NCBI GenBank assembly: GCA_963777605.1
Contig: CAVZRV010000007.1
Location: forward strand, 256,001 to 320,000
Length of the DNA stretch: 64,000 nucleotides
Source: an uncultured Acidobacteriota bacterium
GTDB taxonomy: Bacteria > Acidobacteriota > UBA6911 > RPQK01 > JAPXNP01
Direction of reading: 5' to 3'
The notes beneath the pieces are model-generated. The model had not been told where the DNA came from. It worked only from the letters and a program-made list of their open reading frames with translations, and made no database searches. The number at the start of each line of letters is the position of its first letter. Positions within the stretch are counted from its first letter, which is position 1. This document shows, in pieces, positions 8,319 to 46,059 of the stretch. Made by a program: the position numbers and the translations under genes.

Positions 8319-8360
8319 GACAACGCCCGGCTGACCCGAACTACGATTGAAGACTTGGAG

Positions 8361-8458: not shown

Positions 8459-8493
8459 GTCCAAAATGACTCTTCCATCGCGGCAGCGCTGAC

Positions 8494-9738: not shown

Positions 9739-9739
9739 A

Positions 9740-9795
<56 letters not shown>

Positions 9796-9880
9796 ATTGT
9801 ACTGTGTCAAATCCTGATTAAAAGTTGACAGTTGGTTTTGAGGTTTCGGGTTTCGGGATAGCCCCGCAAGGACGCCCTAA

Positions 9881-11440: not shown

Positions 11441-11548
11441 TTTCGCCACGTCTCCCTCTGAATCCCTCCGGCCGACGGACGTCCGACGGACATCGGGATA
11501 AGTTTCTGGACCGATTCTAAGGGGCTGCCGAATGAACGGCAACAGAAA

Positions 11549-11616
11549 TCCGCGTGCGGGCCCACGGGCGCACCCGGACCCCGGGGATGTAAAACGAAGG
11601 GTCGGCAACCCGGGGC
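11549..11616. repeat. Two adjacent REP-like hairpins
   Basis: TCCGCGTGCG...CGCACCCGGA and CCCCGGGG (11579-11586)...CCCCGGGG (11609-11616). Confidence 0.4.
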
Positions 11617-11673
11617 CGTGAGGCCAGGCACCGCTGGGAGTCCCAAGCCAGCCCTGCGCCCGAGGCGAATCAT

Positions 11674-11979
11674 TCAGAGCGTGAAACTTGCTGAGAGAGA
11701 TTCAACCGCAAAGGCACCAAGGGCGCGAAGATACCCTGTCACAAAGAGATGGATCGCCGCCAGCCGGCGGCCTTCCTCAACGATCCGGTCCGCCGCGGTC
11801 GCAATTCCTTCGAGGCTGACGGGCCCGTCCACCAACTCGCAGATCTCCCGGGCGACTGATTCAAACGGCCTGCCGGTTTTCGCAACCAGGGAGGGATTCG
11901 TTGTCATGCCGTCGATCACACCCAGGGATAGACCCTCTCGGATTTCTTCGAGATCTGCGGTATCCAGGAACAACTTCAC
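11674..11979 (-). pseudogene. 3'-truncated transaldolase / fructose-6-phosphate aldolase family gene
   Basis: AAGGAGG RBS plus GTG; KLFLDTAD, GMTTNPSL, GPVSLE; homology stops at LAAIH, before the VVK Schiff-base lysine, where a half repeat begins. Confidence 0.85.
11700..11747. repeat. Half copy of the dispersed palindromic repeat
   Basis: ATTCAACCGCAAAGGCACCAAGGGCGCGAAG...ACAAAGA matches the left arm of 8361-8458. Confidence 0.65.
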
Positions 11980-28569: not shown

Positions 28570-30165
28570 TTGAACTGCATCGACTTCTTAAGGAGGCACC
28601 TACTGCAGGTTCACCTGATAAATCCCAGTGATCTTTCATTCGGAACAGGAGTTGTGGCTCCTCGTTGGCAATACGTCTTGGCCGCAGCGACTCCTCGTAC
28701 CTTCCCGGATCCCATTATTGTTGACGAAGCCCTTGAGCAGACCGACTTCTCCAAAATCGGCAAAGGGGACGTGGTGGGCATCGGTATCCACACATCGAAT
28801 GCACTCAGAGGTTACTCTGTTGGGCAACAAGCCCGAGAGCGAGGCGCCTGGGTAGTTTTCGGAGGAATTCATGCATCGCTCTTCCCGGAGGAAGCGCACA
28901 AGCTGGGTGGTGCCCATTCGGTAGTTCGCGGTGACGGTGACCTCGTCTGGTCCGAGGTGCTTTGCGATTGCGAGAAGGGTGAACCTTCACCAGTTTACGA
29001 AGGCGGCCAACTTTCCGGCACCGACTTTCTCCCCGCTCGCTGGGACCTCATGGCGAGCGACAAATACATGTGGGCTTCCGTCCAGACCACTCGGGGATGC
29101 CCCAAGCATTGCTCCTTCTGCTCGGTCTGGCGCACCGATGGTCAGGAACCGCGACAGCGGGCGGTAGATACGGTGATTGAGGAGCTCGTCCAACTGAGAC
29201 GAAGCGGTTTTCGTTTCATCGTTCTGGCCGACGACAACTTTTATCCCGTCACCCTCAGAGACATTGAGGTTGCCGACAGGCGCGAGGACAAAACTCGGCG
29301 AGATCAACTCATTCGCCTCCGTGAAGAACGCTTCGAGTTGATGGACCGCCTTTCGCAGTTGCCGGAGGACATGGTTTTCTTCACCCAGATCACGATGGAG
29401 GCCGCGGAAGATATTGAGTTTTTGAAAGCGATGCGCAGAGGTCGAATCAGGGGAGTGCTGGTCGGAGTGGAATCGGTCACCGCTGAAGGCCTCAAGGCGG
29501 TTTACAAGAATTTCAACCTCTCGGGCGACAACCTGGTCGAGCGGCTCCTCCGTTTTCGGGAAAATGGCGTTTTCGTATTGGGCTCATTCATATTCGGGCT
29601 ACCCACAGATGGACCGGACACATTCAGGCAAACCTCCGAACTTGCCACGCGGGCTGGACTCGCTTTTGCCCAATTCGTAACCCTGTCTGTTTTTCCCGGG
29701 ACGCTGGACTTCGCCAAGTGGGAAAAGGAGGAGGGCCGGGATGAAATTGGTGAGAACGGCTTTCCCCGAAGCCATTACTGGCTGACTCCCCGCAGTCTTC
29801 GACCCGACCTCGCTGCCGCCCATCCCACGCTCTCATCCGACGAGATCAAGGCAGGGACGCAGGAAACGTGGGACAGGTTTTACAGCTACCGAACGCTCTG
29901 GGAACGCTCAGGATGCCTGGTACGTCTTAGGTCTCGCGTCGCGTTTTTCCTTGTCTCCAAGCTTTATCGCCAGATGTACGCGAACACAGGGATTGCCAGC
30001 GACAGTGCCCGCGTCAACCGCTCTGCCCGCTGGGCCCGGTGGATTGCTAAACCCTGTCAGCGCTTTTTCAAAGCCAAGCCGATGCCTGATCTGAAGGTTC
30101 CGACACGACACGAGAGTCTCGCAGGTACCGGTGAGTTCGTGCCGAGCAGGGTCGGGCTTGATTGA
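28570..30165 (+). CDS. B12-binding-domain radical SAM protein
   Basis: VVFGGIHAS..PEE, RGCPKHCSFC, DDNF, GVES, GSFIFG; true start may be CTG at 28603. Confidence 0.88.
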   Translation: MNCIDFLRRHLLQVHLINPSDLSFGTGVVAPRWQYVLAAATPRTFPDPIIVDEALEQTDFSKIGKGDVVGIGIHTSNALRGYSVGQQARERGAWVVFGGIHASLFPEEAHKLGGAHSVVRGDGDLVWSEVLCDCEKGEPSPVYEGGQLSGTDFLPARWDLMASDKYMWASVQTTRGCPKHCSFCSVWRTDGQEPRQRAVDTVIEELVQLRRSGFRFIVLADDNFYPVTLRDIEVADRREDKTRRDQLIRLREERFELMDRLSQLPEDMVFFTQITMEAAEDIEFLKAMRRGRIRGVLVGVESVTAEGLKAVYKNFNLSGDNLVERLLRFRENGVFVLGSFIFGLPTDGPDTFRQTSELATRAGLAFAQFVTLSVFPGTLDFAKWEKEEGRDEIGENGFPRSHYWLTPRSLRPDLAAAHPTLSSDEIKAGTQETWDRFYSYRTLWERSGCLVRLRSRVAFFLVSKLYRQMYANTGIASDSARVNRSARWARWIAKPCQRFFKAKPMPDLKVPTRHESLAGTGEFVPSRVGLD

Positions 30166-30393: not shown

Positions 30394-30699
30394 ATGAACG
30401 GCAAGAAACTCTATGTTGGGGGTCTCCCCTACTCGGTATCCGACGGCACGCTGGAACAGATGTTTACGGAATTCGGCAGCGTCGAATCCGCCAAGGTCAT
30501 CACCGACCGGATGGACGGACGATCCCGAGGCTTCGGGTTCGTTGAAATGAGTTCCCAGGCAGAGGCTCAGGCTTCCATCGAGGGAGTGAACGGGACTCAA
30601 ATGGACGGACGGACCTTGACGGTCAACGAAGCCCGCGACCGCAACGCATCCGGTGGTGGAGGGTACGCCGACCAGAGCAGATCCCGCAGCCGGTGGTAA
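30394..30699 (+). CDS. RRM RNA-binding protein
   Basis: RNP2 LYVGGL, RNP1 RGFGFVEM, Gly/Arg-rich tail; AGGAG RBS. Confidence 0.93.
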   Translation: MNGKKLYVGGLPYSVSDGTLEQMFTEFGSVESAKVITDRMDGRSRGFGFVEMSSQAEAQASIEGVNGTQMDGRTLTVNEARDRNASGGGGYADQSRSRSRW

Positions 30700-30826: not shown

Positions 30827-31972
30827 TTATTTTTGTTCTCTTTTGCACCAGCTTCGGACAAGTCTTACCGTGAAAGCCCATGGATTCTGAAGGAAGCCGG
30901 ATTTGAAAGGTACCGTTCCGATGGTTGAACGGGGTCTGAGCAGCAGGAGCCGCAGAAAGTGAAGGCGCTTCCTCCACCCGTCAATCAGGAGGGGATGGAA
31001 GACCAGCAACTGGACCCGCTCGGAAATCCAAGGTCTTGCCGCCAGGGCTGCTTTTCGGGTGAGAACGGCAACGAACCGGGCCCTGACGCGTGGGAATTGA
31101 GGAATCGTAACCGGCCATTTCGTTCCGAGCAACTCTCTCCCGACTTCCATGGCGGCCCAGATACAGGCCGAGAAGTGGTACCTGGAAGCAAACTCCAAAA
31201 CCCCGTCCAAGTGTCCGCACAGCGCCTCCTGGTTCGATGCCCGTTCCAGGTCAAGGAAGTTGAGGAGGTCGAAATATCCGTGCTTCATCGCGTGAACGAA
31301 CAGAAGGAGGAAGAAGTCAACGTCCGCGAGTTCCTTCACGCCGTACTTCCAAGACCGGGCCCGCTCCCAAAACGGCTCCGCCGGGAAGTGGAACGCCTCC
31401 AGTCGGCTCAGCGGACTCGAATGAAGGTCAATCGTGATCCCCGGCATCTCGTTCGGTGACAACGTCACCGGAAGCCTCCAGGAGACGAGTGTCTCCGGGG
31501 CAATACCTGAATACGGTCCGGGCGTAACCCGGTATTCCGCAGAGCAAAGTGCTCTCAAAACCGCTGAAAACTGCGCTGGCCGGACCATCAGGTCGAGGTC
31601 GCGAAACACCCGGGTCAGCGGATTCGGATAGAGCCTCTCGGCCAGATTGGCACCCTTGAGAGTGATCACATCGACCCCGGAATCGGCGGCGATCCCAGAT
31701 ACGTCCTCCAATACCGAGAGAAGCACCTCTCGCTTTGCCTGCCAGGCAGCCGCCTCAATCAGCAACGTGCGGCTGATCAAGTTGGGAAAAGGCTGCTGTG
31801 CCTGACTAAGAGCATCATTCAAGACGAGATGCACCCGATGACGCTGAGACAGGTCGAGTAACTCCACCCAAAAGGAGGGCTGCCGCTTCGCTGGATCCGG
31901 TCGGACTCGTTCCGCCAGCAGGTCCAACAGCCACCTCTCAGGACTGTCCTGTGGACACCTCTTGAATCCCAT
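30827..31972 (-). CDS. Nucleotidyltransferase family protein (NTP_transf_5/PF14907-like)
   Basis: LKG..LA..LYP....R.FRDLDLMV, IDLH, LFVHAMKH, LDL. Confidence 0.82.
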   Translation of the reverse strand: MGFKRCPQDSPERWLLDLLAERVRPDPAKRQPSFWVELLDLSQRHRVHLVLNDALSQAQQPFPNLISRTLLIEAAAWQAKREVLLSVLEDVSGIAADSGVDVITLKGANLAERLYPNPLTRVFRDLDLMVRPAQFSAVLRALCSAEYRVTPGPYSGIAPETLVSWRLPVTLSPNEMPGITIDLHSSPLSRLEAFHFPAEPFWERARSWKYGVKELADVDFFLLLFVHAMKHGYFDLLNFLDLERASNQEALCGHLDGVLEFASRYHFSACIWAAMEVGRELLGTKWPVTIPQFPRVRARFVAVLTRKAALAARPWISERVQLLVFHPLLIDGWRKRLHFLRLLLLRPRSTIGTVPFKSGFLQNPWAFTVRLVRSWCKREQK

Positions 31973-32113
31973 CCCCGGAGTCTAAGCCTTTTCGGAAACC
32001 CGTTGAAGCTCTGTCGACGTCAGGATCTGGTATTGCGGGAGCAACTGTCAAGGGTGCAGGAGGCGTGATGAGATTGAGGATTTGAAGGCGTCCCAATAGC
32101 CGGGAAAAGTCTA

Positions 32114-32142
32114 TTGACGGATTCGTGCGCGTGTGCTAGAAA
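32114..32142 (+). promoter_or_regulatory. Putative sigma70 promoter for the peptide-PqqD-kinase operon
   Basis: TTGACG-N17-TAGAAA with a TGn extension. Confidence 0.5.
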
Positions 32143-32176
32143 GTACTAATACTTGAAAGAGGGTAACCATAAGAAT

Positions 32177-32353
32177 ATGAGCAAGATGGATATCGAAGTG
32201 GCCGCCAAAGATCGACGGCGGTTTGTCAAGCGATTGGCAATTGGAGTAGGGTTGTCCATACCAGTGGTTGTCACCCTGACGAACCGGAAATTGGCGGCGC
32301 AATCCGGACCCGGACCTACGGCAACACCGTCACAGACTCCCACTCTAGACTAA
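32177..32353 (+). CDS. Putative RiPP-like precursor peptide with twin-arginine leader and Ser/Thr/Pro-rich tail
   Basis: MSKMDIEVAAKDRRRFVKRLAIGVGLSIPVVVTLTNRKLAAQSGPGPTATPSQTPTLD; has its own promoter; lies 18 nt upstream of the PqqD gene. Confidence 0.7.
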   Translation: MSKMDIEVAAKDRRRFVKRLAIGVGLSIPVVVTLTNRKLAAQSGPGPTATPSQTPTLD

Positions 32354-32371
32354 CCGACAACCAGCTCGGAT

Positions 32372-32650
32372 GTGACTGTGGAGATTTCTTTCGACTGCTG
32401 TCCGAGAGTGGCTGAACGAATTGTCGAGCAGGTGGCGGAGGATGAGTTGGTCCTTTATGACCCTGCTTCTGATCAGGTTCATATTCTCAACACATTCGCC
32501 GCGGCAATTTACGATCTGTGTGATGGCAGCACGTCTATCTTTTCGATCGTCGCCGAACTCGAGAAAGTGATTGCATCCCCCGCATTCGATCTTGCAGAGG
32601 AAACCCGCCGACTTGTCGCATCACTCGTGGACAAAAAGATTCTTGAATAG
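32372..32650 (+). CDS. Stand-alone PqqD family / RiPP recognition element
   Basis: DELVLYDP....HILN..AA.IYDLCDG..SI..IVAEL......L.DK.ILE; 92 aa. Confidence 0.88.
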   Translation: MTVEISFDCCPRVAERIVEQVAEDELVLYDPASDQVHILNTFAAAIYDLCDGSTSIFSIVAELEKVIASPAFDLAEETRRLVASLVDKKILE

Positions 32651-33461
32651 GAGTGTACGAGTCAGCCTTGAGTCCGTTCACGAACCTGGCAGCCTCGATC
32701 AATTGTTTGGGCCTCTCCCGACAGCTCATCACTCGGAACTGGAATACACTATCCAGGAGTTATCGAGTGGTCACATAGCAGTGATTCCGGCCGCAGGAGG
32801 CCAACCTCTTTCCGTGAGCAGCCTCCCCGAGGCGTTTTACGCGCTGGAAAGCGACTTCTACAATAATATCCTCTGTAAAGACACATCGACGTTGATTATT
32901 CATGCGTCGGCGGTCGTTCACGTGACGACCCGCCAGACTATTGTGCTCCCCGGGGCCAGCCACTGTGGGAAGAGCACTCTGGCGGCGGCCCTGGCAGCAT
33001 CAGGCCGTTTTCTCTACCTCGGTGAAGAAGCCATTGGCCTCGACTGCACAAGCAACCGGTTGTTGTCCTACACCAAACCGGTCAAACTGCGCTTCGGGGC
33101 CGAGCACCGGATTCTGGCGGACGGCTCATGGCCGTGCCTACGAGTTTCGTCGCTCAACTTTACTTACGCAATTCCACCTCAGCCCGTCATCGCGACTGAG
33201 GTCGATCCAGAAGTGCCGTTTCTGTTCGTTTTTCCAACCTTCGCAGCCTCTGTCAAGGCTACCTTGGAAAGAGTTTCTCCAGCTATGGCAATCGCCAAGC
33301 TGGCCACCTATTCGGTCAACCCACCTCAGTTCCTAACATCCCACCTGGAAACCGTCTCGGTCCTCCAGCCGGGAAGAGCATCGTGGGACCTCACCTGGTC
33401 CTCCTGGGAGGAAGTCGTGAAGGAAATCGACTGTCTGTGCTTCTCTGGGTGGAACCGCTGA
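32571..33461 (+). CDS. HPr-kinase-related P-loop kinase
   Basis: IIHASAV, Walker A GASHCGKST, YLGEE acidic pair, ..KP; start uncertain (in-frame TTG overlaps PqqD). Confidence 0.8.
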   Translation: MHPPHSILQRKPADLSHHSWTKRFLNRSVRVSLESVHEPGSLDQLFGPLPTAHHSELEYTIQELSSGHIAVIPAAGGQPLSVSSLPEAFYALESDFYNNILCKDTSTLIIHASAVVHVTTRQTIVLPGASHCGKSTLAAALAASGRFLYLGEEAIGLDCTSNRLLSYTKPVKLRFGAEHRILADGSWPCLRVSSLNFTYAIPPQPVIATEVDPEVPFLFVFPTFAASVKATLERVSPAMAIAKLATYSVNPPQFLTSHLETVSVLQPGRASWDLTWSSWEEVVKEIDCLCFSGWNR

Positions 33462-33536: not shown

Positions 33537-35894
33537 ATGACCTGGGACCACGTGTCGTCGAATCTGTTGCTCCTGCTGAGTTGGTACGGTGCACTGACCG
33601 TTCTCCAGGTCGCCGCACTTCCGCTGACAGCTTCCGTTTTCCGGCGGCTCCCCGATGGTGGATCTTCCCTCTCAAAATTGACCGGGCTGGCTGTGACCGG
33701 GTTCGTCCTCTGGTCGGCCTGGGCCTATGGTCTAGTCGCCAACGACCGGAGTGCGGCCTGGTCCACGGCGGTCGTTGTCGGCGTCGCCTGTTGGGCGATT
33801 CAACTTGCCGTTGACCGCCAGGCGCTCGTCGCATGGATTCGCAGCCACCTGCCGTTGATCGCGGTTTGCGAGCTGGTATTTCTGGCGGGTTTTCTAACGC
33901 TGGCAGCGATCCGCACGATAGCGCCGCAGGTTCGGCACACTGAGCAGCCGATGGATCTCATGATGCTGACCAGCCTTTGGAGCAGCCCTGAATACCCTCC
34001 CCACGACGCCTGGCTCAGCGGATTTCCGGTCTCCTACTATTACTTCGGCTACTGGCTTCAACTCCTCGCAGGCCGCCTTTCCGGAATCGCCCCGGACATC
34101 ACATACAACCTCGGGCTTGCGACCCTCTTCGGTTTCCTCACAGCCGGACTGTTCGGCCTCGGATTCAACCTCGTACGCAGTTCCTGCCTGCGGTCTTCAG
34201 CCCGCTTGCGGTCGTCTTACACGGGTGGCTTCCTGGCCGTTGTCCTGACTGCCTGCGCGGGGAATTTTCGCTCCTTATACGACCTGGCCGTTCACGCTTC
34301 TCACCTCGACAGGTGGTGGTGGCTAAGCAGTCGCGCCCTCCACGACGTTGCACCGAACGGTGTTACCCGGCCCGTGATCACCGAATTTCCCGCCTTCAGC
34401 TACCTGCTGGGGGACAATCACCCTCACCTGCAATCGTCTTCTCTTCTGCTCATGGCAGCCGCGGTGGCAATGAGCCGCATGATGTCGTCAGACGCAAGCG
34501 TCAAGAGAGTACGGCCGGGACTCACGAGATTGTCATTCAGTGCCGGGACCTTCCTCGAGTCTGTACTCTTCCCCGCGTTTGTTCTGGCGGCCGTCACTGC
34601 CACGAACTCCTGGGATGCTCCCGTTGCGTTCGCCCTGGTTTGCCTCGGCTGCTGGTTCTCGAAGAACGGATCGGCCTGGTCGAAGCTGGCGCGAGTCGGG
34701 ATCCGTTGTGCCGGGATCGCCGCGGTGGCATTGCTCATGCTCACGCCGCTGTTGCAAACCCTGCGGGGAAAGGTGTTCGGGATTCTCCCCAACCTGTTCA
34801 ACTCAAGCGATCCGCTCCGGTTTCTCTCGGCGATGGGGCCTGGATTTCTGGCCACTTGCGCGCTCCTCTTCGTGCTCTACCGACGCCGGGCCGGATGGCG
34901 ATCGGCCGCCTGGATCGGAGGACTCGCCTTGTTGGCGCTGGTGGGCATTGCACTGGTTACGCTGAACGCAATGGCCAGCCCTCAGTGGAACAATTGGCTG
35001 AACCAACTTGGCCTCGATCCGTCCCTGCCTTTCTGGCCGCTTGCTCTTCGGCGATGGGCGCTCCATTTCCTGGTGGCCGGCGGCCTGCTCGTTGCTCTCG
35101 GAGTCGTCCTCTCGCAGAGAATCAAGGGGCGGTTTAGGCGGGAAAATGTCGGGCTCCAGATGGGCCTGATTTTGACGGTGGTCTCGATATGCCTTTTGCT
35201 TGCCCCCGAGTTGGTTTTCGTTCACGACATTTTCCATTACCGGGTCAATACTGTTTTCAAATTGCATTACGGTGCCTGGATCCTGCTGGGCCCGGTCGGG
35301 GCATACGCCTTGACGCGACTGGCTGCAACCCGTCGGCACCGAGGAAAACTTTGCCTGCTCGGCTTTGCCTCGTCGGCTGCCCTGCTCTACCCTCTCTTCG
35401 CATTTTGGCCCCTAACTTTCGGGAACGTTCCACCGCAATACACACTTTCCGCGAAGGCGGCACTGGGGGAGACCGAACCTCAGCTTCTCGATGCACTTGA
35501 GTGGATCGACAGCCACACACCGCATGACGCGGTCGTCGTGGAAGCCCCCGGGGCGGCTCAAGATCCTCTTTCCTGCCCGGTCAGCACCTATACGGGAAGA
35601 GCGACTCTCCTCGGCTGGCAGGACCACGAATTACAGTGGCGTCCGGAGCAACTCGACTCGGTCTTCACTGAACGAACCCGGGCCCTCGAATCGATTTATC
35701 GAACGGAGTCTGCTTCGATGATTGAAGCTCTGGCGGGCCGTTACGAGATCAACTTCATCGTCCAGGGCCCCCGTGAACGGGTCCGGTACGGAGATGAATC
35801 AAAGGGACTCGAACGGCTGGGTGCGCCCGTCTTCCAGAGCAAGACTTACCGGGTCTACGCAACCGGTCGCAGGAAAGCGGGATTCGAGCGGTGA
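33537..35894 (+). CDS. DUF2298 / Chlor_Arch_YYY (TIGR03662-like) polytopic membrane protein, putative GT-C
   Basis: EQPMD, PPHDAWLSG..VSYYYFGY, ITEFP.FSYLLGDNHPH, NSWD, NTVFK, GW..HE.QWR. Confidence 0.85.
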   Translation: MTWDHVSSNLLLLLSWYGALTVLQVAALPLTASVFRRLPDGGSSLSKLTGLAVTGFVLWSAWAYGLVANDRSAAWSTAVVVGVACWAIQLAVDRQALVAWIRSHLPLIAVCELVFLAGFLTLAAIRTIAPQVRHTEQPMDLMMLTSLWSSPEYPPHDAWLSGFPVSYYYFGYWLQLLAGRLSGIAPDITYNLGLATLFGFLTAGLFGLGFNLVRSSCLRSSARLRSSYTGGFLAVVLTACAGNFRSLYDLAVHASHLDRWWWLSSRALHDVAPNGVTRPVITEFPAFSYLLGDNHPHLQSSSLLLMAAAVAMSRMMSSDASVKRVRPGLTRLSFSAGTFLESVLFPAFVLAAVTATNSWDAPVAFALVCLGCWFSKNGSAWSKLARVGIRCAGIAAVALLMLTPLLQTLRGKVFGILPNLFNSSDPLRFLSAMGPGFLATCALLFVLYRRRAGWRSAAWIGGLALLALVGIALVTLNAMASPQWNNWLNQLGLDPSLPFWPLALRRWALHFLVAGGLLVALGVVLSQRIKGRFRRENVGLQMGLILTVVSICLLLAPELVFVHDIFHYRVNTVFKLHYGAWILLGPVGAYALTRLAATRRHRGKLCLLGFASSAALLYPLFAFWPLTFGNVPPQYTLSAKAALGETEPQLLDALEWIDSHTPHDAVVVEAPGAAQDPLSCPVSTYTGRATLLGWQDHELQWRPEQLDSVFTERTRALESIYRTESASMIEALAGRYEINFIVQGPRERVRYGDESKGLERLGAPVFQSKTYRVYATGRRKAGFER

Positions 35895-37762
35895 TCCGGA
35901 CTAATGCTCTCAGCAAACACGAGTGGGCTGGATGGGGACTCCTTCTCGCCATCGGAATCTGTTCCCACTTCGTCGGCCTTGGGGATCGCGTTCTCAGTTA
36001 CGACGAGTCCGTCCACGCCTTCTATTCCTACCGACTGGCTGAAACAGGCTCCTATATCCACTCGCCGGTAACCCACGGCCCGCTGCTGTTCTACCTCAGT
36101 GCCCTTGTCTTCCTGTTGTCCCCTGCCACCGACTTCACGGTCCGGCTGATTCCAGCAATTGCCGGGTCTGGGCTCGTAGTCATGCCATTGCTGTTCCGAA
36201 GATGGATCGGCGCCGGAGCGGCTTTCGCAGCCGGCCTGCTCATTACGGCGAGTCCCCTCCTGCTCTATTTCGGGCGATACCTTCGAAACGATATCTACAT
36301 CCTCGTGCTTCTGCTGGCCTGGGTTTTCGCGATCTTTCGCTTTCTGGAAACACCCCGCCTGAGCCTGCTCTACTCACTCACCATCGCAATGGCGCTCTCC
36401 TTTGCCTGCAAGGAAGTCAGCTTTATTTCGGCTTCCCTGATTTTTCCGTTCCTGCTCATCATGGCGGCTTTGAACCGGCAACACGATCCACTTCCATCCC
36501 TGCAACTCAGCATTCTGCATTTCACCCTGCTTCTCCCCCTCTCGATGCCCCTGGTACTGCGATTGACCGGATTGGAGGCCACCCGCGTCTGGCTTGAGAA
36601 CCATCCCCGGTGGGGACTTGGTTCCTCGATTCTCGGCATCCTGGTTTCCGTCGTGATCGCTTTCCTCGCAACCAGCCGAATCGCCCGGGCGGGAGGAGTT
36701 CTCACATTCCGAAACTGGCTCAAGGCGGCCGCTCTCTTCTGGCTGATTCTCGGATTCTACTTTTCGACCTTTCTCAAGAACCCTCCGGGGCTCTTCACAG
36801 GACTGTTCCAAGGCCTCAATTACTGGCTGAGCCAGCACCACGTTGAACGCGGTGGTCAACCCGTCTACTACTACCTCATCCTGCTCGGTCTCTACGAATT
36901 CATCGTTGTCCTTTTGAGCATCGGCAGCCTCGGGTCACTGGCCGTGAAGGTCATGCAACGCGGTGCCCGCAACTGGCTCAGCGGTCTCACGGAGAAGCCG
37001 GGGGAGCGCTTCAACGTTTTTTGCGTCTGGTGGGGAATCGGAAGCCTCCTCGCGTACTCAGTCGCCGGAGAAAGGATGCCCTGGCTTGCGGTTCACATTC
37101 TCTTGCCATTCATCTTCCTGTCGGCAGGGATGATTTCCTCCCGACTGAACCGGATTCGCTCGGCTGGTCACCTGCCGAGAAACCCGCTGTTGATCCTCGG
37201 ACTGATTCTGACCGGAGTGATTGCGGTCCTCGGTCTTCGCACGAGCGTTCAGCTCAACTTCGTCAACGGCGGCCTCCCTGTTGAGCCGGTCGCTTACGCC
37301 CAGGGAGGACCCGCAGCACCCGAATTGGCCGCCAAGATCCGGGGATTTGCCCACAAGGGAACACAGGTCGCCATTGATAACCGGGTAGCGTGGCCCCTGT
37401 CCTGGTACCTGCGGGAAATCGCGCCCAACTGTCGAACCGGCGACTTCGCGGCGGGAGTCCCGCTCGAATTCGGCCTCCTGGTCAGTGCCTCCCCTGGACC
37501 GGGCAACGGGCTCGAGTCGAACGACTGGCGTCTTTTGTCACAGGGCCCCGTGCTCTGGTGGCCCATCCACGACTACCGACGGCTCTATGCTTCGCAAACC
37601 GGTGCGGGCTCGCTCCGAGAAGGACTGGTCACGTTTTGGGAAGTCTTTTACAATCGCCATTTTCAAGGACTGGCAATCGAATCCTGGCCCGCTCGTCAAG
37701 ACGCTTGGCTTTATGACAGGACCGCAACTCACCGCCGCCATCGCCTGGCTCCTTCTGATTGA
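35891..37762 (+). CDS. TIGR03663-like (PMT_2/GT-C) membrane protein
   Basis: LGDR...DES.HA, P..HGP, RYLRND, KE, YWL.QH.V.RG.QP.YYY, AGE.MPWL.VH; GTGA overlap with the previous gene. Confidence 0.82.
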   Translation: MIRTNALSKHEWAGWGLLLAIGICSHFVGLGDRVLSYDESVHAFYSYRLAETGSYIHSPVTHGPLLFYLSALVFLLSPATDFTVRLIPAIAGSGLVVMPLLFRRWIGAGAAFAAGLLITASPLLLYFGRYLRNDIYILVLLLAWVFAIFRFLETPRLSLLYSLTIAMALSFACKEVSFISASLIFPFLLIMAALNRQHDPLPSLQLSILHFTLLLPLSMPLVLRLTGLEATRVWLENHPRWGLGSSILGILVSVVIAFLATSRIARAGGVLTFRNWLKAAALFWLILGFYFSTFLKNPPGLFTGLFQGLNYWLSQHHVERGGQPVYYYLILLGLYEFIVVLLSIGSLGSLAVKVMQRGARNWLSGLTEKPGERFNVFCVWWGIGSLLAYSVAGERMPWLAVHILLPFIFLSAGMISSRLNRIRSAGHLPRNPLLILGLILTGVIAVLGLRTSVQLNFVNGGLPVEPVAYAQGGPAAPELAAKIRGFAHKGTQVAIDNRVAWPLSWYLREIAPNCRTGDFAAGVPLEFGLLVSASPGPGNGLESNDWRLLSQGPVLWWPIHDYRRLYASQTGAGSLREGLVTFWEVFYNRHFQGLAIESWPARQDAWLYDRTATHRRHRLAPSD

Positions 37763-40175
37763 AGGACTGGCACTCCTGGCATTCCCTCTCCTTTTGCCGG
37801 TCACACGAAACCTGCCGGACAAGGGTTGGCTCCTGTCCAAGCCGGCAGGTCTTCTGCTGATTGGCTATCCAGCCTGGCTTCTGGGGAATCTCTATTCCGA
37901 AGGCTTTTCAAGAGTCTCCATTGCAGCGGTGCTGACGCTTGCCCTGGTTGCGGCCGTCGCCTGGGCCTGGCGACATCGCGCCCGGCCCGCGAAAAGGAGG
38001 ATGGACCTGGTCACGACCCTGGTCCTGCCGGAACTGGTCTTTCTCGGAACCTTCCTTCTTTTCCTCTTGCTACGGCTGTTCGACCCGGAACTTTGGAACC
38101 CGGTTTCAGGCGGTGAGAAGCCGATGGACTTCTCGCTCCTCAATGCCTGCATCCGGAGCGATCACCTCCCCCCCGAAGCGCCCTGGCTCTCAGGCCACCC
38201 GGTCAATTACTACTACTTCGGCTACGTGCTGTTCAGCATCCCATCCAAGCTCCTGGGTATTCCGGCCGAATATGCCTACAACCTCGCGCTGCCGACAGTC
38301 GCCGCGTTGACGGCCGCGGCGGCATTCACAATCGTTCAGTCGATTCAATCCCGTCACGAGCCCATTGCAGTCCCGGGGTGCAGGAAGAGTCTGGTGGCGA
38401 AGCAGGCGATCCTTTGGGCCGGCCTCGGTCCCCTCTTCGTGGCTCTGATCGGGAACCTGTTCGAGGCGAGGCTGCTCCTTTCGGGCCTGAAGAAGCTCGG
38501 GGCCGACAATGTCGCAACTGGAATTCCGGTCCTTGGGTCTCTCTGGTCGGTCGTCACAGGAGCAGGCAGACTAATCGACGGCACTGCCACCTGGCCCTAC
38601 CGGGCAGCTTCCTTTTACTGGAGCGCCACTCGCGTGATCCCCGCCCACGGCAAGGAAGTTCCTCCCATCACCGAGTTCCCGTTCTTCTCGTTGCTCTACG
38701 GTGACCTTCACCCTCACCTGATGGCCCTGCCCTTCACGATGCTGTTCATCGGCCTTGCCGTCGCAGCAGTGCTCCACCGCAGGGGATCCTCCAGGTTACC
38801 TTTTTCGGAGTCCGCCTGGCTGGCTGTGTCGCTGACGGGGATCCTCCTGATCCACCCCTGGAACGTCCCCTTGAGCGTCTTCATCCTGGTCCTCCTGCTT
38901 TGGACGATTGCAGAACCGGGCCATCGAGGGGGACTTGCACGTCTGCGGGGAGCCGCGACCAACTCGACGTTGGTGATCGTCTCAGCCCTGATCTTTGCGG
39001 CTCCCTTCCTCGTCCATTACGCCGTACCGGTCGCCCATCCCGCCGCGTGGCTTGGGACTCAGACTCCACTGGGCGTGTTCTGGGACATCTTCGGCCTCTT
39101 TCTGGCCCTGATCGTGACCGCCGGGATCTTCCGTCTCCGGGATCGCCCCTTGGAGGGATCTCTGGAAGAACCGGGAGTTCGCGTCTCCGTCCTCCTTTTG
39201 CTCGTCGCAGTTGCAATCTGGCTGGATTGGACCGATTATCCCCTGACTTCGGCTGCGGCGCTCGTGGCGGTCCTGATCGTCGCCGGCTCGCTGCGAGTCA
39301 TGCTCAAGGATCCCAACCCTGAGGATCGAATCCCCTGGGCACTCGTGATCACGGGCTCGATCGGCATCGTCATCAGCGAAACACTGACATTCGGAAACGG
39401 TGTGGGGCACATGAACACCGTGTTCAAGTTCTACTACCAGGTCTGGTTGTACTGGGCACTGGCGGCTGCCGCCCTCTCTCCGGAAGTGTTCCAGCGGTTA
39501 ATGTCGCTGCCTGGGAGGTGGTTGCGCATCGGCGCCTGTACCGGGTTTCTTGCTCTCCTTGCCGCGAGCTGCCTTTATCCTCCCTTTTCACTCTACGGCA
39601 AGATGGCGGGACGCTGGTCCAAATCTGTCCCGAATCTTGACGGCAGCCTGTTCATGGAAAGCGCGCGGCTTCCCCTCGGCGATATCCTGCTCCCGCTTCG
39701 GCCCGACCTCGAGGGGATCAGGTGGCTGAAACAAAACGTGCCCGACGCGAAAACATTGGTTGAAGCCGCCGGCTCCGACTACAGTTGGGCGGGAAGGATC
39801 AGTTCCAGCACCGGGATACCAACCGTGATCGGCTGGCCTTCCCACGTTCTCCAGCACCATCCCCAGCTTACCGCCGGAGAAGTTGACGACCGGGTTGAGG
39901 CAGTGAGAGAGATCTATGAATCGATCGACGTCGAATCAATCCTGCCTCTGCTGCGGCGATTCAACATCGGGTACATCTATGTCGGCCCCCTTGAACGCAA
40001 GACCTACGCCCCTGATGGCCTCCGGAAGTTCGACCAGCCGGCACCGGGCGTCTGGGAGCCGGCCTATATCGGATCGGGCACCCGGATCCTCCGAATCACC
40101 ATCAACGACGTGCCCTCGAAAGTCGAACCAGAAGGAACGCGCTCCGGAGCACACCGACAACCAATCGACCACTGA
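37713..40175 (+). CDS. Second DUF2298 / YYY polytopic membrane protein
   Basis: GGEKPMD, PWLSG..VNYYYFGY, ITEFPFFS.LYGDLHPH, MNTVFKFYYQ.W, TG.PTVIGW, YIYVGPLER. Confidence 0.87.
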   Translation: MTGPQLTAAIAWLLLIEGLALLAFPLLLPVTRNLPDKGWLLSKPAGLLLIGYPAWLLGNLYSEGFSRVSIAAVLTLALVAAVAWAWRHRARPAKRRMDLVTTLVLPELVFLGTFLLFLLLRLFDPELWNPVSGGEKPMDFSLLNACIRSDHLPPEAPWLSGHPVNYYYFGYVLFSIPSKLLGIPAEYAYNLALPTVAALTAAAAFTIVQSIQSRHEPIAVPGCRKSLVAKQAILWAGLGPLFVALIGNLFEARLLLSGLKKLGADNVATGIPVLGSLWSVVTGAGRLIDGTATWPYRAASFYWSATRVIPAHGKEVPPITEFPFFSLLYGDLHPHLMALPFTMLFIGLAVAAVLHRRGSSRLPFSESAWLAVSLTGILLIHPWNVPLSVFILVLLLWTIAEPGHRGGLARLRGAATNSTLVIVSALIFAAPFLVHYAVPVAHPAAWLGTQTPLGVFWDIFGLFLALIVTAGIFRLRDRPLEGSLEEPGVRVSVLLLLVAVAIWLDWTDYPLTSAAALVAVLIVAGSLRVMLKDPNPEDRIPWALVITGSIGIVISETLTFGNGVGHMNTVFKFYYQVWLYWALAAAALSPEVFQRLMSLPGRWLRIGACTGFLALLAASCLYPPFSLYGKMAGRWSKSVPNLDGSLFMESARLPLGDILLPLRPDLEGIRWLKQNVPDAKTLVEAAGSDYSWAGRISSSTGIPTVIGWPSHVLQHHPQLTAGEVDDRVEAVREIYESIDVESILPLLRRFNIGYIYVGPLERKTYAPDGLRKFDQPAPGVWEPAYIGSGTRILRITINDVPSKVEPEGTRSGAHRQPIDH

Positions 40176-40818
40176 CCTGCAGACCGGCACCGCTGTGACG
40201 GGGAACCCAGTGAACCGGGAGCTCCAAAGTCCGCCACCCGTCACGGGCGGCAAATCCGCTCAGGATCACGTTGGGTGCAAATGCAGTTGATGGAATCAGG
40301 GGAAGATAACTGTCGAGGAAAGGCCTCCGCATCAGCCTGAACGGGCAGTTCACGTCCCGAAACCGGGAACCAAAACAAATTCTGGAGGAGACTCCTGCCA
40401 TCCGGGAGAGCCCGCTCCTGGCCACACTCAAGTTCCGGCCCATCCGGCAACCCAACAGGAAGTCATAGCTGTCCCTGGACCGCCAGAAGGCCGGGAAGTC
40501 CGATGGAATAACTTCTCCGTCACTGTCGATCTGCAACACCCATTCGGCGCAGGATTCCGTGTAACCCCGAAGAACAGCGGGGCCGTGCCCCATGTTTGGG
40601 TGCGAGCGGACCGTAAGTTCGTGGAATGGTTCCCTCAGTTCTGAGAGCAAATCGGGAGTCCGGTCGGTGGACCCGTCATCGAGCACGATCATCTCGAACT
40701 GAACTCCGGCCCCACGCAACAAGCGGCACCACTGTTCCACCGTCGTCGCAATTACCGATTCCTCGTTGTAGACGGGCATCACCACCGAAAGTTCTTCGGC
40801 AGCTCTCTCTGCGTTCAC
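40102..40818 (-). CDS. Glycosyltransferase family 2 (polyprenyl-phosphate sugar synthase-like)
   Basis: VVMPVYNE, DDGSTD.T, N.GHG.A, IDSDG, D.NC.FR; 3' end overlaps the convergent DUF2298 gene. Confidence 0.88.
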   Translation of the reverse strand: MNAERAAEELSVVMPVYNEESVIATTVEQWCRLLRGAGVQFEMIVLDDGSTDRTPDLLSELREPFHELTVRSHPNMGHGPAVLRGYTESCAEWVLQIDSDGEVIPSDFPAFWRSRDSYDFLLGCRMGRNLSVARSGLSRMAGVSSRICFGSRFRDVNCPFRLMRRPFLDSYLPLIPSTAFAPNVILSGFAARDGWRTLELPVHWVPRHSGAGLQVSGRLVVGVLRSAFLLVRLSRARR

Positions 40819-40854: not shown

Positions 40855-42621
40855 TCAGGGATCTCCCGAGATATTCGCGTCGTCATGCATCAATTCCAGC
40901 ACCTCCACTCGCAGGTTGGGACCGGGCCTCTCCACCTCCGACAGAGAGTCGAAAGGAAGGAAGAACCCGTCGATAATGTCCCAGCTTGCGGATTCCGCCC
41001 CTGTAGTCGAGATGAAGTCAGCCTGCCTGAGAACGTGGCCCTGCCATTTGGAGAGTTCCCCGGCCGGCGAGTTACCCAGTTCGAGGGGGTGCCAGGAGGT
41101 CACCCTCACGATCCGACTTCCCGATATATCGCCGGGCTGCGGGAACCGGTAAACCTCCCGGCCCTGGCTTCCGATATCAGGATTGGTTAACTGGTCACGA
41201 TAGAGCCGTGAGATGAAATCCCCGGCGCTCGCGCCATAGCGCCTCGAAACGTACTCCATTCGCCGTGCCAGGGAATCCGGGCTCTCCAGGATCTGGGGCT
41301 CCGATTCAGGCCCGCAGAGGAGCACGATCGGCGTCTCTTGGCTCACGTTGTCCCGGATCCACTGGCCCGCCAGGGCGCGAGTGTCCGTCTTCGAAAGCAG
41401 CCCATCCAGTCGAACCGACCTCGCCACCGAACCCGCGAAGCTGACCGTCAACAATACGGTCAGGACGGTTTTGGTCAGCCTGCGGTCGAGTGCGTTGAAA
41501 AGATCGGCGAATCCTTTCCCTGCCAGAACCGCCAGGAAGGGCAAAATCGGCAGGAGGTAGCGAAACGGGACGGGATGTTGAAACGGCACCAGCGCCAGCA
41601 GGTGCAGCAAAACGAAACCCGCCAGGAAGACCGTCGCTTTCCGGCCCCGGGGCACCGCGAAAGCGAAAACCACACCGGCGCCCGCCAATCCCAGTCCCAG
41701 CAACTCTCCCGGACCGAACTGGAGCGGCCGCAGAATTCGCCCCAGCGAAAGCCCGACACTCCAGGGAGGATCTCCCTCTTGCCACAAGTAGAAGATTTTC
41801 AAGATGGAAAACAGTTCGGAGAGGGCTGCCCGGAAGTTCGGAATGATGTATGGGTTGAGCAGAAAGAAGAGTGCCAGGGGGACGATCGCGATGATCGCCA
41901 AGTGCCTCAGGCGGTCTTGCCAGGAGCGTTCGAGGCCGGATGTAAAGAGGTCGGCCAGGGCGATACGGGGGCCCATCAGCAGGGCCGTGTACTTGCAGGC
42001 GGCCGCCAGTCCGAACAGAGCCGAAGACATCACGAGAGTCCCGGGTTCCCCATTCTCCTGGTACCGCAGGAAGTAAAGCGCGCACAAGGAAAGGAAAAGT
42101 ACCATCGGAGTATCCGTGACCCCAAAATGGGCATCCCGGACCGCGAGCGGGGCACACGCAAAAAGCCCGGCCGCAGCGAGAGCCCCGGTCTCCGAAGTCA
42201 GACGACGGCCGATCTTGAAAACAACCCCTATCGTCGCGGTACCGCAGAGGACCGATATCCAGCGCGGGATCAGGAAGTAGGCATCCTGGAAGCGGGCGAA
42301 ATCGGCCACGAGGCTGCTCGACGCAGGCTCGCGAAACAGAGTAGCAACCCAGTAGTAGAGGTGATACAGGATTGCGGTCACCTCGGATACAAGGGCCGGG
42401 TAAACGTAAAAACGGGGATCCCCCAGCCTTTCGAACAGGTGAAGAGCCGGTTCGACGATCAGGCTCTCATCGGGACGCACGTATAGGTTGGAAAGAATCG
42501 GGGTCCCGAATCCCACTCCCCAGGCTCTGAGTATGAACCCGGCGATCACAAGAATCGCCAACACAATGAGATCGGCCGCACCCCCCCTCCACCCTTTGGG
42601 TTGCGGCGGGACGGGCCCCAT
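40855..42621 (-). CDS. ArnT/PMT (GT39/GT83-like) membrane glycosyltransferase
   Basis: RPDE in the first loop, F.YP, R..S...G, AHF...D, G.A...KY, RYLLP. Confidence 0.8.
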   Translation of the reverse strand: MGPVPPQPKGWRGGAADLIVLAILVIAGFILRAWGVGFGTPILSNLYVRPDESLIVEPALHLFERLGDPRFYVYPALVSEVTAILYHLYYWVATLFREPASSSLVADFARFQDAYFLIPRWISVLCGTATIGVVFKIGRRLTSETGALAAAGLFACAPLAVRDAHFGVTDTPMVLFLSLCALYFLRYQENGEPGTLVMSSALFGLAAACKYTALLMGPRIALADLFTSGLERSWQDRLRHLAIIAIVPLALFFLLNPYIIPNFRAALSELFSILKIFYLWQEGDPPWSVGLSLGRILRPLQFGPGELLGLGLAGAGVVFAFAVPRGRKATVFLAGFVLLHLLALVPFQHPVPFRYLLPILPFLAVLAGKGFADLFNALDRRLTKTVLTVLLTVSFAGSVARSVRLDGLLSKTDTRALAGQWIRDNVSQETPIVLLCGPESEPQILESPDSLARRMEYVSRRYGASAGDFISRLYRDQLTNPDIGSQGREVYRFPQPGDISGSRIVRVTSWHPLELGNSPAGELSKWQGHVLRQADFISTTGAESASWDIIDGFFLPFDSLSEVERPGPNLRVEVLELMHDDANISGDP

Positions 42622-42875
42622 CACAGGGTTACGCCTCCTCGCCGATGCCCGCATCGGCTGCGTCGGCGACGCCTTGATCTGGACCCCGACGCGCTCGCAA
42701 CAGGTGCGTGCGAATTTCTGACTTAGGACACTGGTCCGCTGAAGCATGAATCGCTCGGATTCTAGCCTCTCCCCCTGCGATATGGAAGTCCGGGACACCG
42801 TCCGTTTCCGGCCGTCCGGACTCTACCCGCCGTCAGTGGGCCTGCGGTATGTTCGCCTGGTCCCGCCTGATTGAC

Positions 42876-44309: not shown

Positions 44310-44469
44310 GGGTATCTCCTCCTTCTCACAACCCCCAGGCTCCTGAAGAAAACACCCCGGAGGTACAGAGACGATCTTTTGGTCACCTCATTCTGGCCCG
44401 AACAGGTCCTCAAGAAAAGCCCCGAGCGGTTTCTTCTATACTGGGATGGTTTTGGCAAGAGCGGCAGCT

Positions 44470-46059
44470 ATGAACGACGGGCCACTGGTGGAGGTGAGGA
44501 AGCTTTCCGTCAATCTCGAGGGCCGCGTCTACTTCGAGAACACGGACTGGACTATCAACCGGGGTGAACACTGGGCCGTGGTCGGCCCGACCGCTTCGGG
44601 CAAATCCATCCTGATCAAGGCTCTCTGCCGGGAACTTCCCCTGTACGATGGGACGGTCCGGTACTTTTTCAAACCTTTCGGTGCGCCAAGGTCATTTATT
44701 CACCGCGGAGAGATCATCCGGGTGACACCCGAAGCCGAGGCAGAGCTCAGAGGCGCCAGGCATGGCTATCACCAGGCCCGCTGGCACAGCTTCGAAGGAG
44801 CGAATTCCCCGAGAGTGACGGAGATCCTGACTGGCGAAAATATCGAGAGAGTTTCTTCCTACGACATCACGCCGCTTCGACGTTCCCGCCAGGAGTACGA
44901 GCGGGAGCGCGAACGAGTCGTCGCCTTGCTGGGGCTCGAGGGCCTGATGGAAAGGAAGGCCTTCCAGCTATCTCATGGGGAGGCACGCAAGGTCCTGATT
45001 GCACGTGCGCTGATGCAGTCCGCTGCAATCCTGGTCCTGGATACTCCTTTTGGAGGCCTCGACCAACACTCACGCCTCCAACTGAAAGGCATCCTGGAGC
45101 GATTGCTGGCCGAAGCCACGCCCACGATCCTCATCCTGACCAGCAGTCGAGAGGATCTTCCGGAAGGTATCACTCACCGGGCCGAGGTATCGGGAGGCCG
45201 GATCGTCAAATTGTCCCGGATCAACGACGATGCGTCTTCCCTTGTCGAACACGTTGATTTTGCGGGCCGGACGGAACGCGGCGAATTCGACTCTCCGAAG
45301 GTCTTCAGAGACTTTGCGACGGTGACAACTCCCGGGACTCAGCTTCCCACCGGTGACCCTGGTGATACGACTGTCGTAGAGCTCAGGGGAGTCAATGTAA
45401 GCTACGGTCCGGTCCGGGTGCTTTCGGAAGTGAGCTGGACGGTCCGCCGGGGAGAGAGATGGGCGCTGCTCGGCCCCAATGGAGCCGGCAAGAGCACCCT
45501 GTTGAGCGTGATCCTGGCCGACAATCCCCAAGCCTATGCCAACCAGGTTCGGATCTTCGGGCGACGGCGGGGGAGCGGGGAAACCATTTGGCAGATCAAG
45601 AGGCGAATTGGCTGGGTCTCTCCGGAACTCCAGAGCCACTATCCGCCGACAACACCCTGTCGGGCGGTCGTCGAGTCCGGACTTCACGACAGCATCGGGT
45701 TGTATTCGTCCGGTCGGCCCGAGGATTCGGGCCGAGTTGACGAACTCCTGGGCGCGATCGGGATTGAACAGGTTGCTGGGCGGCCCTTTGGGGCGGTCTC
45801 TACTGGAGAACAGCGTCTTGTACTTCTGGCCCGAGCGCTGCTCAAGGAACCGGAGTTGCTGATCCTCGATGAACCCGTCCAGGGCATGGACGGGCCGCTT
45901 CGAGACCGGCTTAAGGCATTCCTCGAGGCCTACTGTAGGTCGCTCCCGGTTACGCTGATCTATGTGACACATGTCCCGTCGGAAATTCCCGGTGTGGTTG
46001 AGCATACTCTCCGGCTGGAAGAAGGCCGTGTTCTGCCCGGATCGGATGCGGTAGACTGA
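44470..46059 (+). CDS. Duplicated ABC ATP-binding protein (ModF-like)
   Basis: Two Walker A motifs (GPTASGKS, GPNGAGKST); LSHGE and VSTGE signatures; GSGETIW.IK..IGWVSPE. Confidence 0.85.
   Translation: MNDGPLVEVRKLSVNLEGRVYFENTDWTINRGEHWAVVGPTASGKSILIKALCRELPLYDGTVRYFFKPFGAPRSFIHRGEIIRVTPEAEAELRGARHGYHQARWHSFEGANSPRVTEILTGENIERVSSYDITPLRRSRQEYERERERVVALLGLEGLMERKAFQLSHGEARKVLIARALMQSAAILVLDTPFGGLDQHSRLQLKGILERLLAEATPTILILTSSREDLPEGITHRAEVSGGRIVKLSRINDDASSLVEHVDFAGRTERGEFDSPKVFRDFATVTTPGTQLPTGDPGDTTVVELRGVNVSYGPVRVLSEVSWTVRRGERWALLGPNGAGKSTLLSVILADNPQAYANQVRIFGRRRGSGETIWQIKRRIGWVSPELQSHYPPTTPCRAVVESGLHDSIGLYSSGRPEDSGRVDELLGAIGIEQVAGRPFGAVSTGEQRLVLLARALLKEPELLILDEPVQGMDGPLRDRLKAFLEAYCRSLPVTLIYVTHVPSEIPGVVEHTLRLEEGRVLPGSDAVD

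Follow-up and report, generated by a model that had tools for sequence, protein, structure and literature searches.

A candidate recognition-element-guided kinase and nucleotidyltransferase cassette with a twin-arginine-type precursor peptide in a nine-gene block of Acidobacteriota

Linear polyphosphorylated peptides (LPPs) are made by lppA-K-B-S-D-N clusters of Bacillota, for which we draw on excerpts of Popov et al. (Nat Commun 2026, PMC13381572). Their core genes encode a precursor, an HprK-like kinase, a discrete recognition element (RRE) of the kind that serves peptides made by the ribosome and modified after translation (RiPPs), a signal peptidase I of archaeal type (SpI), an MsbA-like exporter, and an NTP transferase, and it was through the gene for the archaeal-type SpI, LppS, that the family was discovered. 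LppK adds as many as four phosphates to Ser3 of the linear core, which starts A-Q-S, and the SpI homologue removes the leader by cutting just before that core. LPP clusters are embedded in capsule loci, their genomes are often shared with a paeninodin-type lasso cluster, and the excerpted text calls LPPs restricted to Bacillota. Here, we describe a locus in a soil acidobacterium that would follow the same kinase, RRE, and nucleotidyltransferase logic, wired to the general twin-arginine translocation (Tat) pathway and signal peptidase. The locus lies in the window, by which we mean the whole 64,000-nucleotide (nt) stretch that was analyzed (contig C7:256001-320000 of a 6.7-Mb genome whose nearest public relatives are Acidobacteriota metagenome-assembled genomes), and its core module at 30827-33461 consists of a PF14907 nucleotidyltransferase on the minus strand, followed on the plus strand by a peptide of 58 amino acids (aa), a PqqD-family protein, and a kinase.

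Two other described systems offer parts of the comparison. Paeninodin-type kinases phosphorylate the C-terminal Ser of a linear precursor, and the pseudomycoidin nucleotidyltransferase PsmN adds one or two hexoses to the phosphate (excerpts of PMC8498205). Bufferins, which are RiPPs modified by MNIO enzymes, carry a Sec signal peptide that is cut by signal peptidase and, because the precursor N-terminus is a general export signal, need no dedicated exporter or leader peptidase (excerpts of Leprevost et al., PNAS 2024, PMC11626156). The literature searched made no mention of TIGR04352, TIGR04353, or HPr-rel-A, two RRE survey papers in it made no mention of HPr, kinase, or nucleotidyltransferase, and among the matches listed there was neither a twin-arginine motif in the RRE/PqqD literature nor a discussion of DUF2298.

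We propose, and hold the chances to be evenly balanced, that the locus and the genes around it make a small, modified, exported peptide through RRE-guided Ser phosphorylation, sugar extension, Tat export, and signal-peptidase cleavage, possibly with glycosylation of the tail. An earlier note on this DNA had staked a similar idea on a small twin-arginine peptide regularly preceding PqqD in homologous loci, and the same small open reading frame (ORF) does lie between the divergent nucleotidyltransferase and PqqD in all three related Acidobacteriota loci, which belong to one other genus. The peptide is the best-conserved gene of the locus, with 59-68% identity between genera across the four syntenic loci, against 39-42% for PqqD, 36-41% for the nucleotidyltransferase (syntenic and divergently transcribed in 4/4 genomes), and 30-35% for the kinase, and this conservation is far above what export alone would need. 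Synonymous change predominates over the 34 conserved codons, the six pairwise comparisons giving 16/7, 10/10, 17/9, 13/3, 15/4, and 15/3 synonymous to non-synonymous differences, and the ORF is therefore a real gene under purifying selection.

The four aligned peptides share an invariant or near-invariant N-terminus, K-D-R-R-R-F-[VL]-[KR]-R-L-A-I-G, with a twin-arginine motif of the RRxFLK type. An uncharged segment of 14-15 residues that holds G-L-[ST]-x-P comes next, then a basic [DN]-R-K, then [VL]-[VA]-A, at a small-x-small, signal-peptidase-like site, and the invariant Q-S-G. The residues before Q-S-G are L-A-A in the window peptide and V-V-A in the relatives, so that A-Q-S-G is itself invariant, and what follows is a variable tail of 9-15 residues with hardly a residue other than Thr, Pro, Ser, Gly, and Ala. 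The Tat-type architecture (motif, uncharged h-region, basic c-region, and A-x-A-like site) is kept in 4/4 peptides, all of which are matched by the TIGR01409 model TAT_signal_seq (best E 0.004), the window peptide with a score below the cut-off. The genome encodes TatC (E 7.6e-65) and has two genes for bacterial signal peptidase I; the peptide is single-copy, with no paralogue in the genome.

The organization of the genes points to co-expression from a single promoter. PqqD starts 18 nt past the peptide stop. With the kinase start set at TTG 32613 by the alignment with relatives, the last 38 nt of PqqD are also the first of the kinase. In four intergenic regions that are otherwise divergent, TTGAC (32114-32118 in the window) and TG-n-TA-n-A-n-A (32134-32142) are invariant and 17 nt apart, which backs the promoter-like element already seen before the peptide gene in the earlier note. 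This conserved promoter was not reported by a generic promoter consensus scan because the second hexamer ends in A. It appears to drive an operon of the peptide, PqqD, the kinase, and three membrane proteins of the type of glycosyltransferases with a C fold (GT-C).

The kinase is matched by TIGR04352 (HprK-related kinase A) and, weakly, by the kinase B model, and by no other family. Its Walker A motif is GASHCGKST, then YLGEEA, and in the subfamily these read GxSH[CS]GKST and an acidic Y-L-[SGA]-E-E-A in which both Glu residues are invariant. HprK and phosphoenolpyruvate carboxykinase (PEPCK) have a common fold. The kinase model (pLDDT 93.6, pTM 0.91) confidently predicts a PEPCK/HprK-like fold, with ATP-dependent PEPCK (E 9.2e-7, TM-score 0.56 on the query) and HPr(Ser) kinase 3tqf (E 1.1e-3) as the best matches, and a search of solved structures with the kinase profile returned P-loops only. 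All 40 aligned kinase relatives match TIGR04352 and 9/40 match the true HPr kinase model; the superfamily holds 9908 representatives at E ≤ 1e-3, and the kinase's own subfamily holds 11 at E ≤ 1e-30.

PqqD is 92 aa long in 4/4 loci and aligns without gaps, and its sequence search against solved structures gave a best E of 0.41, nothing useful. We followed the suggestion of modeling it together with the peptide, and the predicted complex scored 0.35 (runs 0.30, 0.50, and 0.35) against 0.01 for the best of three controls, with at least 65% of contacts in agreement between runs and a partner pLDDT of at least 50. The mark used is reached by 58/80 solved complexes and 2/110 mismatched pairs, and at scores of 0.60 or below, by only 7 of those 80 solved complexes plus both passing mismatches. 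The model thus lends weak support to binding, at a score in the range where mismatches also pass, and the pass may reflect likeness only because RRE-leader complexes have already been solved.

In the nucleotidyltransferase, G107, D125, D127, and H184 (G...DxD...H) are invariant in 5/5 sequences, that is, the four syntenic ones and the paralogue of the genome. A second and stronger NTP_transf_5 gene (E 1.7e-51), at 7724-8998 of contig C27:76000-92000, stands alone, with a PEP-CTERM protein, a GDP-mannose dehydratase, and SecA among its neighbors and no PqqD or kinase nearby. Nucleotidylation of the peptide had been suggested previously, and we consider it less likely than a sugar added to the phosphate, given the hexose addition in pseudomycoidin (excerpts of PMC8498205).

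Searches beyond the locus found few close relatives, along with distant ones. Full-length kinase relatives were found in three genomes of one other genus (32-36% identity) among 61 related genomes searched, and at E ≤ 1e-20, a sample of 401 Acidobacteriota genomes yielded kinase matches from five, which are strong in this genome and its three relatives and weak in the fifth. A scan of genome contigs for further members gave the same three close loci only, a word-index protein search gave three matches, and a metagenome scan gave 16 loci, all distant. The 14 distant kinase loci with usable flanks have, by BLASTP, a PqqD homologue in 11 cases, an NTP_transf_5 homologue in 8, and a GT-C homologue in none. 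At least 9/26 distant loci contain a fused variant in which PqqD continues into R-R-[EQ]-V-A-[RQ]-R-L-A-L-A-G ... P-L-V ... A-P-T-P-A-M-A-x-S and a variable tail; the fused family occurs in Bryobacterales genomes and metagenome contigs, directly after the HprK-like kinase and before NTP_transf_5 where flanks allow. The fused family and the window peptide have in common an R-R-x4-R-L-A start, a Pro within the hydrophobic stretch, and a Ser two residues past the A-x-A site, and they are built on the same leader logic. Other distant loci (L035 at ~199; L041/L042 at ~6858) show RR-hydrophobic segments followed by poly-Thr or by poly-Pro and a Cys-rich tail, and these tails hint that cargo of widely differing kinds may ride on such a leader.

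The modification enzymes that would point to other RiPP classes are missing, as had been claimed from the window alone. In a whole-genome search, PF13471 and PF00733 match only outside the window, which confirms that it holds neither a lasso cyclase nor a transglutaminase-like peptidase. PF00733 has its matches on contigs C15 and C28 and a further, weak one on the window's own contig, ~17 kb before it, and PF13471 is above its cut-off on C28 only. In Pfam scans of the large ORFs at 21120-47244, there was likewise no YcaO, LanM, or SPASM enzyme, and no membrane ABC exporter. The archaeal-type signal peptidase model TIGR02228 has one match in the whole genome, below cut-off on contig C30 (29.9 vs 51.85 bits), and none in the window. 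For a two-ATPase ABC protein at 44446-46059, the relatives have nothing in the matching place beside the block, and only weak ABC-type matches occur elsewhere in their stretches. Two genes just before the core module were considered as cluster members and dropped for lack of synteny in the relatives: a B12-binding radical SAM gene (28570-30165, 531 aa), for which no match to a specific NCBIfam family exceeds the cut-off, and an RRM RNA-binding protein (30394-30699, 101 aa).

The same genome carries a separate lasso-type cluster on contig C28 (106000-124000 stretch, at ~2342-11938). Its sulfotransferase is split over two ORFs, possibly by a frameshift, its large ORFs at 5450-7219 and 7639-8832 have no Pfam match, and it is without NTP_transf_5; the resemblance of its kinase and PqqD to those of the window is remote. 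Among the three related genomes, all of which carry the block, one that is 97% complete has no Transglut_core3 match, and the cassette is therefore independent of a lasso pathway.

Each of the four core genes was found where the earlier note had placed it, by ORF calls and Pfam and NCBIfam matches, but a module of four genes proved too small. BLASTP of the window genes against the three related loci revealed a nine-gene block that is syntenic in 4/4 genomes, of which the four genes are a part: the nucleotidyltransferase (-); the peptide, PqqD, kinase, DUF2298 A, Agl23-like PMT_2, and DUF2298 B (+); and a convergent glycosyltransferase of family 2 (GT2) with a PMT_2 protein (Table 1). The synteny of the DUF2298 and Agl23-like genes (33537-40175, +) holds in 4/4 genomes, as does that of the GT2 (46-48% identity) and of the fourth GT-C protein (49-52% identity). 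The start of the Agl23-like gene overlaps the DUF2298 A stop by 4 nt in the window, and in 2/3 relatives, the kinase stop and the DUF2298 start also overlap by 4 nt. The ORF of DUF2298 B is open from 37485, and its likely start was placed by reading the translation. The best solved relatives of the GT2 are ArnC (E 1.8e-19), dolichol-phosphate mannose synthase 5mlz (1.5e-8), and sll0501 (5.7e-6), which are enzymes that load sugar onto polyprenyl phosphate, and sequence searches of solved structures with the DUF2298 and both PMT_2 proteins gave no matches. TIGR03662 matches occur in 12/76 genomes of the order. Where DUF2298 and Agl23-like pairs are found without the cassette, some DUF2298 proteins are ~1800 aa long and apparently doubled, and the neighbors include a UDP-GlcNAc-2-epimerase-like gene and a GT2.

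Table 1. Features of the nine-gene block in the window and of the lasso-type cluster on contig C28 (positions there are those of its 106000-124000 stretch)
Feature	Location	Position	Strand	Length (aa)	Evidence and remarks
NTP_transf_5 (PF14907) nucleotidyltransferase-fold enzyme	Window	30827-31972	-	381	PF14907 E 1.3e-30, 107 bits vs cut-off 31
Sigma-70-type promoter (putative)	Window	32114-32142	+		-35 TTGACG 32114-32119; 17-nt spacer; extended -10: TG 32134-32135, TAGAAA 32137-32142
Precursor peptide (candidate)	Window	32177-32353	+	58	From ATG: MSKMDIEVAAKDRRRFVKRLAIGVGLSIPVVVTLTNRKLAAQSGPGPTATPSQTPTLD; RRRFVK, uncharged stretch with Pro, NRK, L-A-A, Q-S-G, Thr/Pro/Ser tail
Stand-alone PqqD-family protein (RRE type)	Window	32372-32650	+	92	GTG start; PF05402 E 5.7e-9, 36.6 bits vs cut-off 23.4
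HprK/PEPCK-fold P-loop kinase	Window	32613-33461	+	282	From TTG 32613; ORF open from 32571; TIGR04352 E 1.5e-15
DUF2298 / Chlor_Arch_YYY membrane protein A	Window	33537-35894	+	785	Probable GT-C fold; PF10060 E 1.2e-86; TIGR03662 368 bits vs cut-off 300
Agl23-like / PMT_2 GT-C membrane protein	Window	35891-37762	+	623	PF13231 E 2.6e-10; TIGR03663 265 bits vs cut-off 126
DUF2298 / Chlor_Arch_YYY membrane protein B	Window	37713-40175	+		Likely start near 37713; PF10060 E 5.7e-93; TIGR03662 482 bits
GT2, polyprenyl-phosphate sugar synthase type	Window	40102-40818	-	238	Convergent with the operon; PF00535 E 1e-20
Fourth GT-C membrane protein (PMT_2)	Window	40855-42798	-	647	Upstream of GT2; PF13231 E 7.5e-20
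Asn synthase	C28	2342-3676			
PqqD	C28	7261-7563			
Second PqqD match	C28	near 8912-9016			
HprK-like kinase	C28	9733-10632			
Sulfotransferase	C28	10892-11224, 11073-11495			Two overlapping ORFs
Transglut_core3	C28	11492-11938			

From the gene content, conservation, and synteny that we observed, we infer each chemical and transport step as follows. The PqqD/RRE protein would bind the conserved leader (RR-x4-RLA ... P-hydrophobic), present the peptide to the HprK-like kinase, and, by sitting on the leader, act like a Tat proofreading chaperone. By analogy with LppK on LPP Ser3, the kinase would phosphorylate, possibly repeatedly, the invariant Ser43 of A-Q-S-G, and by analogy with PsmN in pseudomycoidin, the divergent NTP_transf_5 enzyme would add a sugar to the phosphate. 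The twin-arginine leader would take the decorated peptide through Tat, and the general signal peptidase I would cut after L-A-A (V-V-A in relatives), both of them standing in for the dedicated SpI homologue and ABC exporter of LPPs. In the most speculative step, the four GT-C enzymes could glycosylate the Thr/Pro tail or the phospho-sugar outside the membrane, with a polyprenyl-phosphate sugar supplied by the GT2. In a variant of this proposal that we find possible but unlikely, the peptide would be the primer or acceptor of an extracytoplasmic glycan, and RRE-guided phospho-glycosylation in the cytoplasm, Tat export with the RRE as proofreading chaperone, and elongation of the Thr/Pro tail by the DUF2298 and Agl23-like GT-C enzymes from a polyprenyl-phosphate sugar would yield a bacterial mini-mucin or proteophosphoglycan.

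The central idea of the earlier note, a cyclase-less, RRE-dependent kinase and nucleotidyltransferase module acting on a linear Tat-leader peptide, fits all the tests made and has a precedent in LPPs; its four-gene extent does not stand, and its nucleotidylation is the less likely chemistry. Several results weigh against our proposal as a whole. Of the families named for the core genes, PF05402 and PF14907 are matched above cut-off, but the kinase falls far under the TIGR04352 cut-off (57 bits vs 200), PqqD falls under that of TIGR04353 (E 1e-5, 26.4 bits vs 35), and the window peptide falls under that of TIGR01409 (14.2 bits vs 16.7). A permissive Tat-like pattern is not enriched near the distant kinases (0.187 per kb vs 0.155 away from them) and was dropped as a statistic; of the distant loci, we take only the clearly homologous fused family as evidence. 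Ser is the C-terminal residue in 1/4 peptides only, and the paeninodin-type target is thus missing in the other three. In the excerpts of PMC13381572, deletion of LppN had no visible effect in a heterologous host, so that the role of the nucleotidyltransferase is unproven even in the LPP model system. The syntenic nucleotidyltransferase is apparently frameshifted near its N-terminus in one of the four genomes (stretch L023 4704-6146 = L026 6199-7245), which may be an assembly error or the onset of decay. The GT-C fold of the DUF2298 proteins is suggestive only, as it comes from a poor model of copy A (pLDDT 58.9), for which Foldseek ranks 1-23 are all GT-C enzymes (DPY19, AftA, STT3/OST, AftD, PglB, and ArnT among them) with a best E of 1.2e-3 and a TM-score of ~0.2. 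The nucleotidyltransferase, peptide, PqqD, and kinase have no BLASTP match beside DUF2298 and Agl23-like pairs in eight stretches from five genomes of two other genera, and because the pair exists without the cassette, the link to glycosylation is lineage-specific and made by synteny alone. There is no RNA among the public runs listed, which include three DNA runs sharing 0.06-0.10 of words, and with four loci from two genera, the comparative power is small.

The best placed of the competing explanations, although an improbable one, makes the peptide an acceptor or subunit of the GT-C glycosylation machinery, either anchored in the membrane or exported, with the kinase and nucleotidyltransferase acting on a lipid or sugar intermediate (e.g., a polyprenol or sugar phosphate) and PqqD as no more than a chaperone for the small hydrophobic protein. 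The genes do belong to a common operon and syntenic block, the GT2 looks like a polyprenyl-phosphate sugar synthase, the Thr/Pro tail resembles an O-glycosylation acceptor, and the function of NTP_transf_5 is unproven. However, characterized HprK-like kinases beside discrete RREs phosphorylate peptides, the trio of kinase, PqqD, and nucleotidyltransferase recurs in distant loci without GT-C genes, and an invariant Ser past a cleavage-like site fits the geometry of the LPP phospho-site.

We are more doubtful that the twin-arginine-like N-terminus serves only for recognition by the RRE and kinase and is no export signal, which would leave the product in the cytoplasm or send it out by an unlinked exporter. 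A leader far more conserved than export requires and the sub-threshold Tat model score would fit such a role, and the L-x-x-P-x-hydrophobic stretch recalls the RRE motif [Y/W]xxPx[L/V] given in the excerpts of PMC13381572. On the other hand, all four peptides combine a canonical RRxF[LV]K with an uncharged stretch of signal length, a basic c-region, and a small-x-small site, the block is without a dedicated exporter or peptidase, and the corresponding segment of the distant fused family, with its A-M-A-x-S, lies between a PqqD domain of cytoplasmic type and a variable tail.

It is very improbable that the cassette tailors the lasso-type product of C28 in trans. That cluster has its own kinase and PqqD, along with a sulfotransferase, Transglut_core3, and Asn synthase, and it has no NTP_transf_5 of its own; its presence in the genome recalls the frequent co-occurrence of LPP and lasso clusters (excerpts of PMC13381572). 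Nevertheless, the cassette has its own, strongly conserved peptide, the two kinases and PqqD proteins are only remotely alike, and the block persists in the relative that lacks a Transglut_core3 match. Finally, that the small ORF is no functional gene or that its adjacency is fortuitous can hardly be credited, since, despite the lack of an RNA run and a rather long Shine-Dalgarno spacing of 13 nt by direct reading, the ORF is present in 4/4 loci with an excess of synonymous changes, a conserved promoter in front, and the highest conservation of the block.

If our proposal of a modified, Tat-exported peptide is right, RiPP-style peptide modification would be tied to envelope glycan biology, as the cassette is coupled to a complete set for lipid-linked sugar transfer. 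The peptide would also be, as far as we searched, the first RRE-dependent precursor with a twin-arginine leader, although the cluster lists in the LPP supplement might hold Tat-leader or non-Bacillota cases. PF14907 and the orphan DUF2298 and TIGR03663 membrane proteins would gain in it a candidate substrate that is short and defined, and if it primes a glycan, the DUF2298 "YYY" proteins, an orphan family, would have their first candidate substrate. The size of the system would allow it to be rebuilt in a laboratory host.

Compared with known systems, the block is most like the LPP clusters. Both are cyclase-less and combine a linear precursor with an HprK-like kinase, a discrete RRE, and an NTP transferase, a likeness by family and fold. 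In both, the leader at the N-terminus of the precursor is conserved and the C-terminus varies, with a Ser that follows a signal-peptidase-type site by two to three residues, and both loci lie among glycan genes in genomes with a lasso-type cluster. The differences are that our block is without an archaeal-type SpI and an MsbA-like exporter, that the four aligned leaders lack YxxPxVLxHQxIxFETxxS and are of twin-arginine type instead, and that the host is an acidobacterium in which the operon is joined to DUF2298 and Agl23-like GT-C proteins. The block thus appears to work like an LPP cluster without being a member of the family, as the SpI, the exporter, and the leader motif all set it apart. 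With paeninodin and pseudomycoidin (PsmK/PsmN), it shares an HPr-kinase homologue and a nucleotidyltransferase beside a PqqD-type RRE, but the window has neither a lasso cyclase nor a B2 peptidase. Among curated families, HPr-rel-A is the nearest in that TIGR04352 is the best NCBIfam match for the kinase and TIGR04353 is among the top two for PqqD, although both matches stay below the curated cut-offs, as given above.

The proposed export route has its counterpart in the bufferins, where, in the excerpts of PMC11626156, the precursor also carries a general export signal and receives its modification in the cytoplasm, aided by a partner protein, ahead of export; bufferins differ in their Sec signal, their thiooxazole chemistry, and their enzymes, and they can be modified without their signal peptide.

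Protein O-mannosylation uses PMT-family GT-C enzymes and polyprenyl-phosphate mannose. Similarly, the block places PMT_2 proteins beside a GT2 of polyprenyl-phosphate type and a candidate acceptor that would be exported and is rich in Thr and Pro, but here the acceptor would be a ribosomal peptide of 15-18 residues with its own kinase, RRE, and nucleotidyltransferase.

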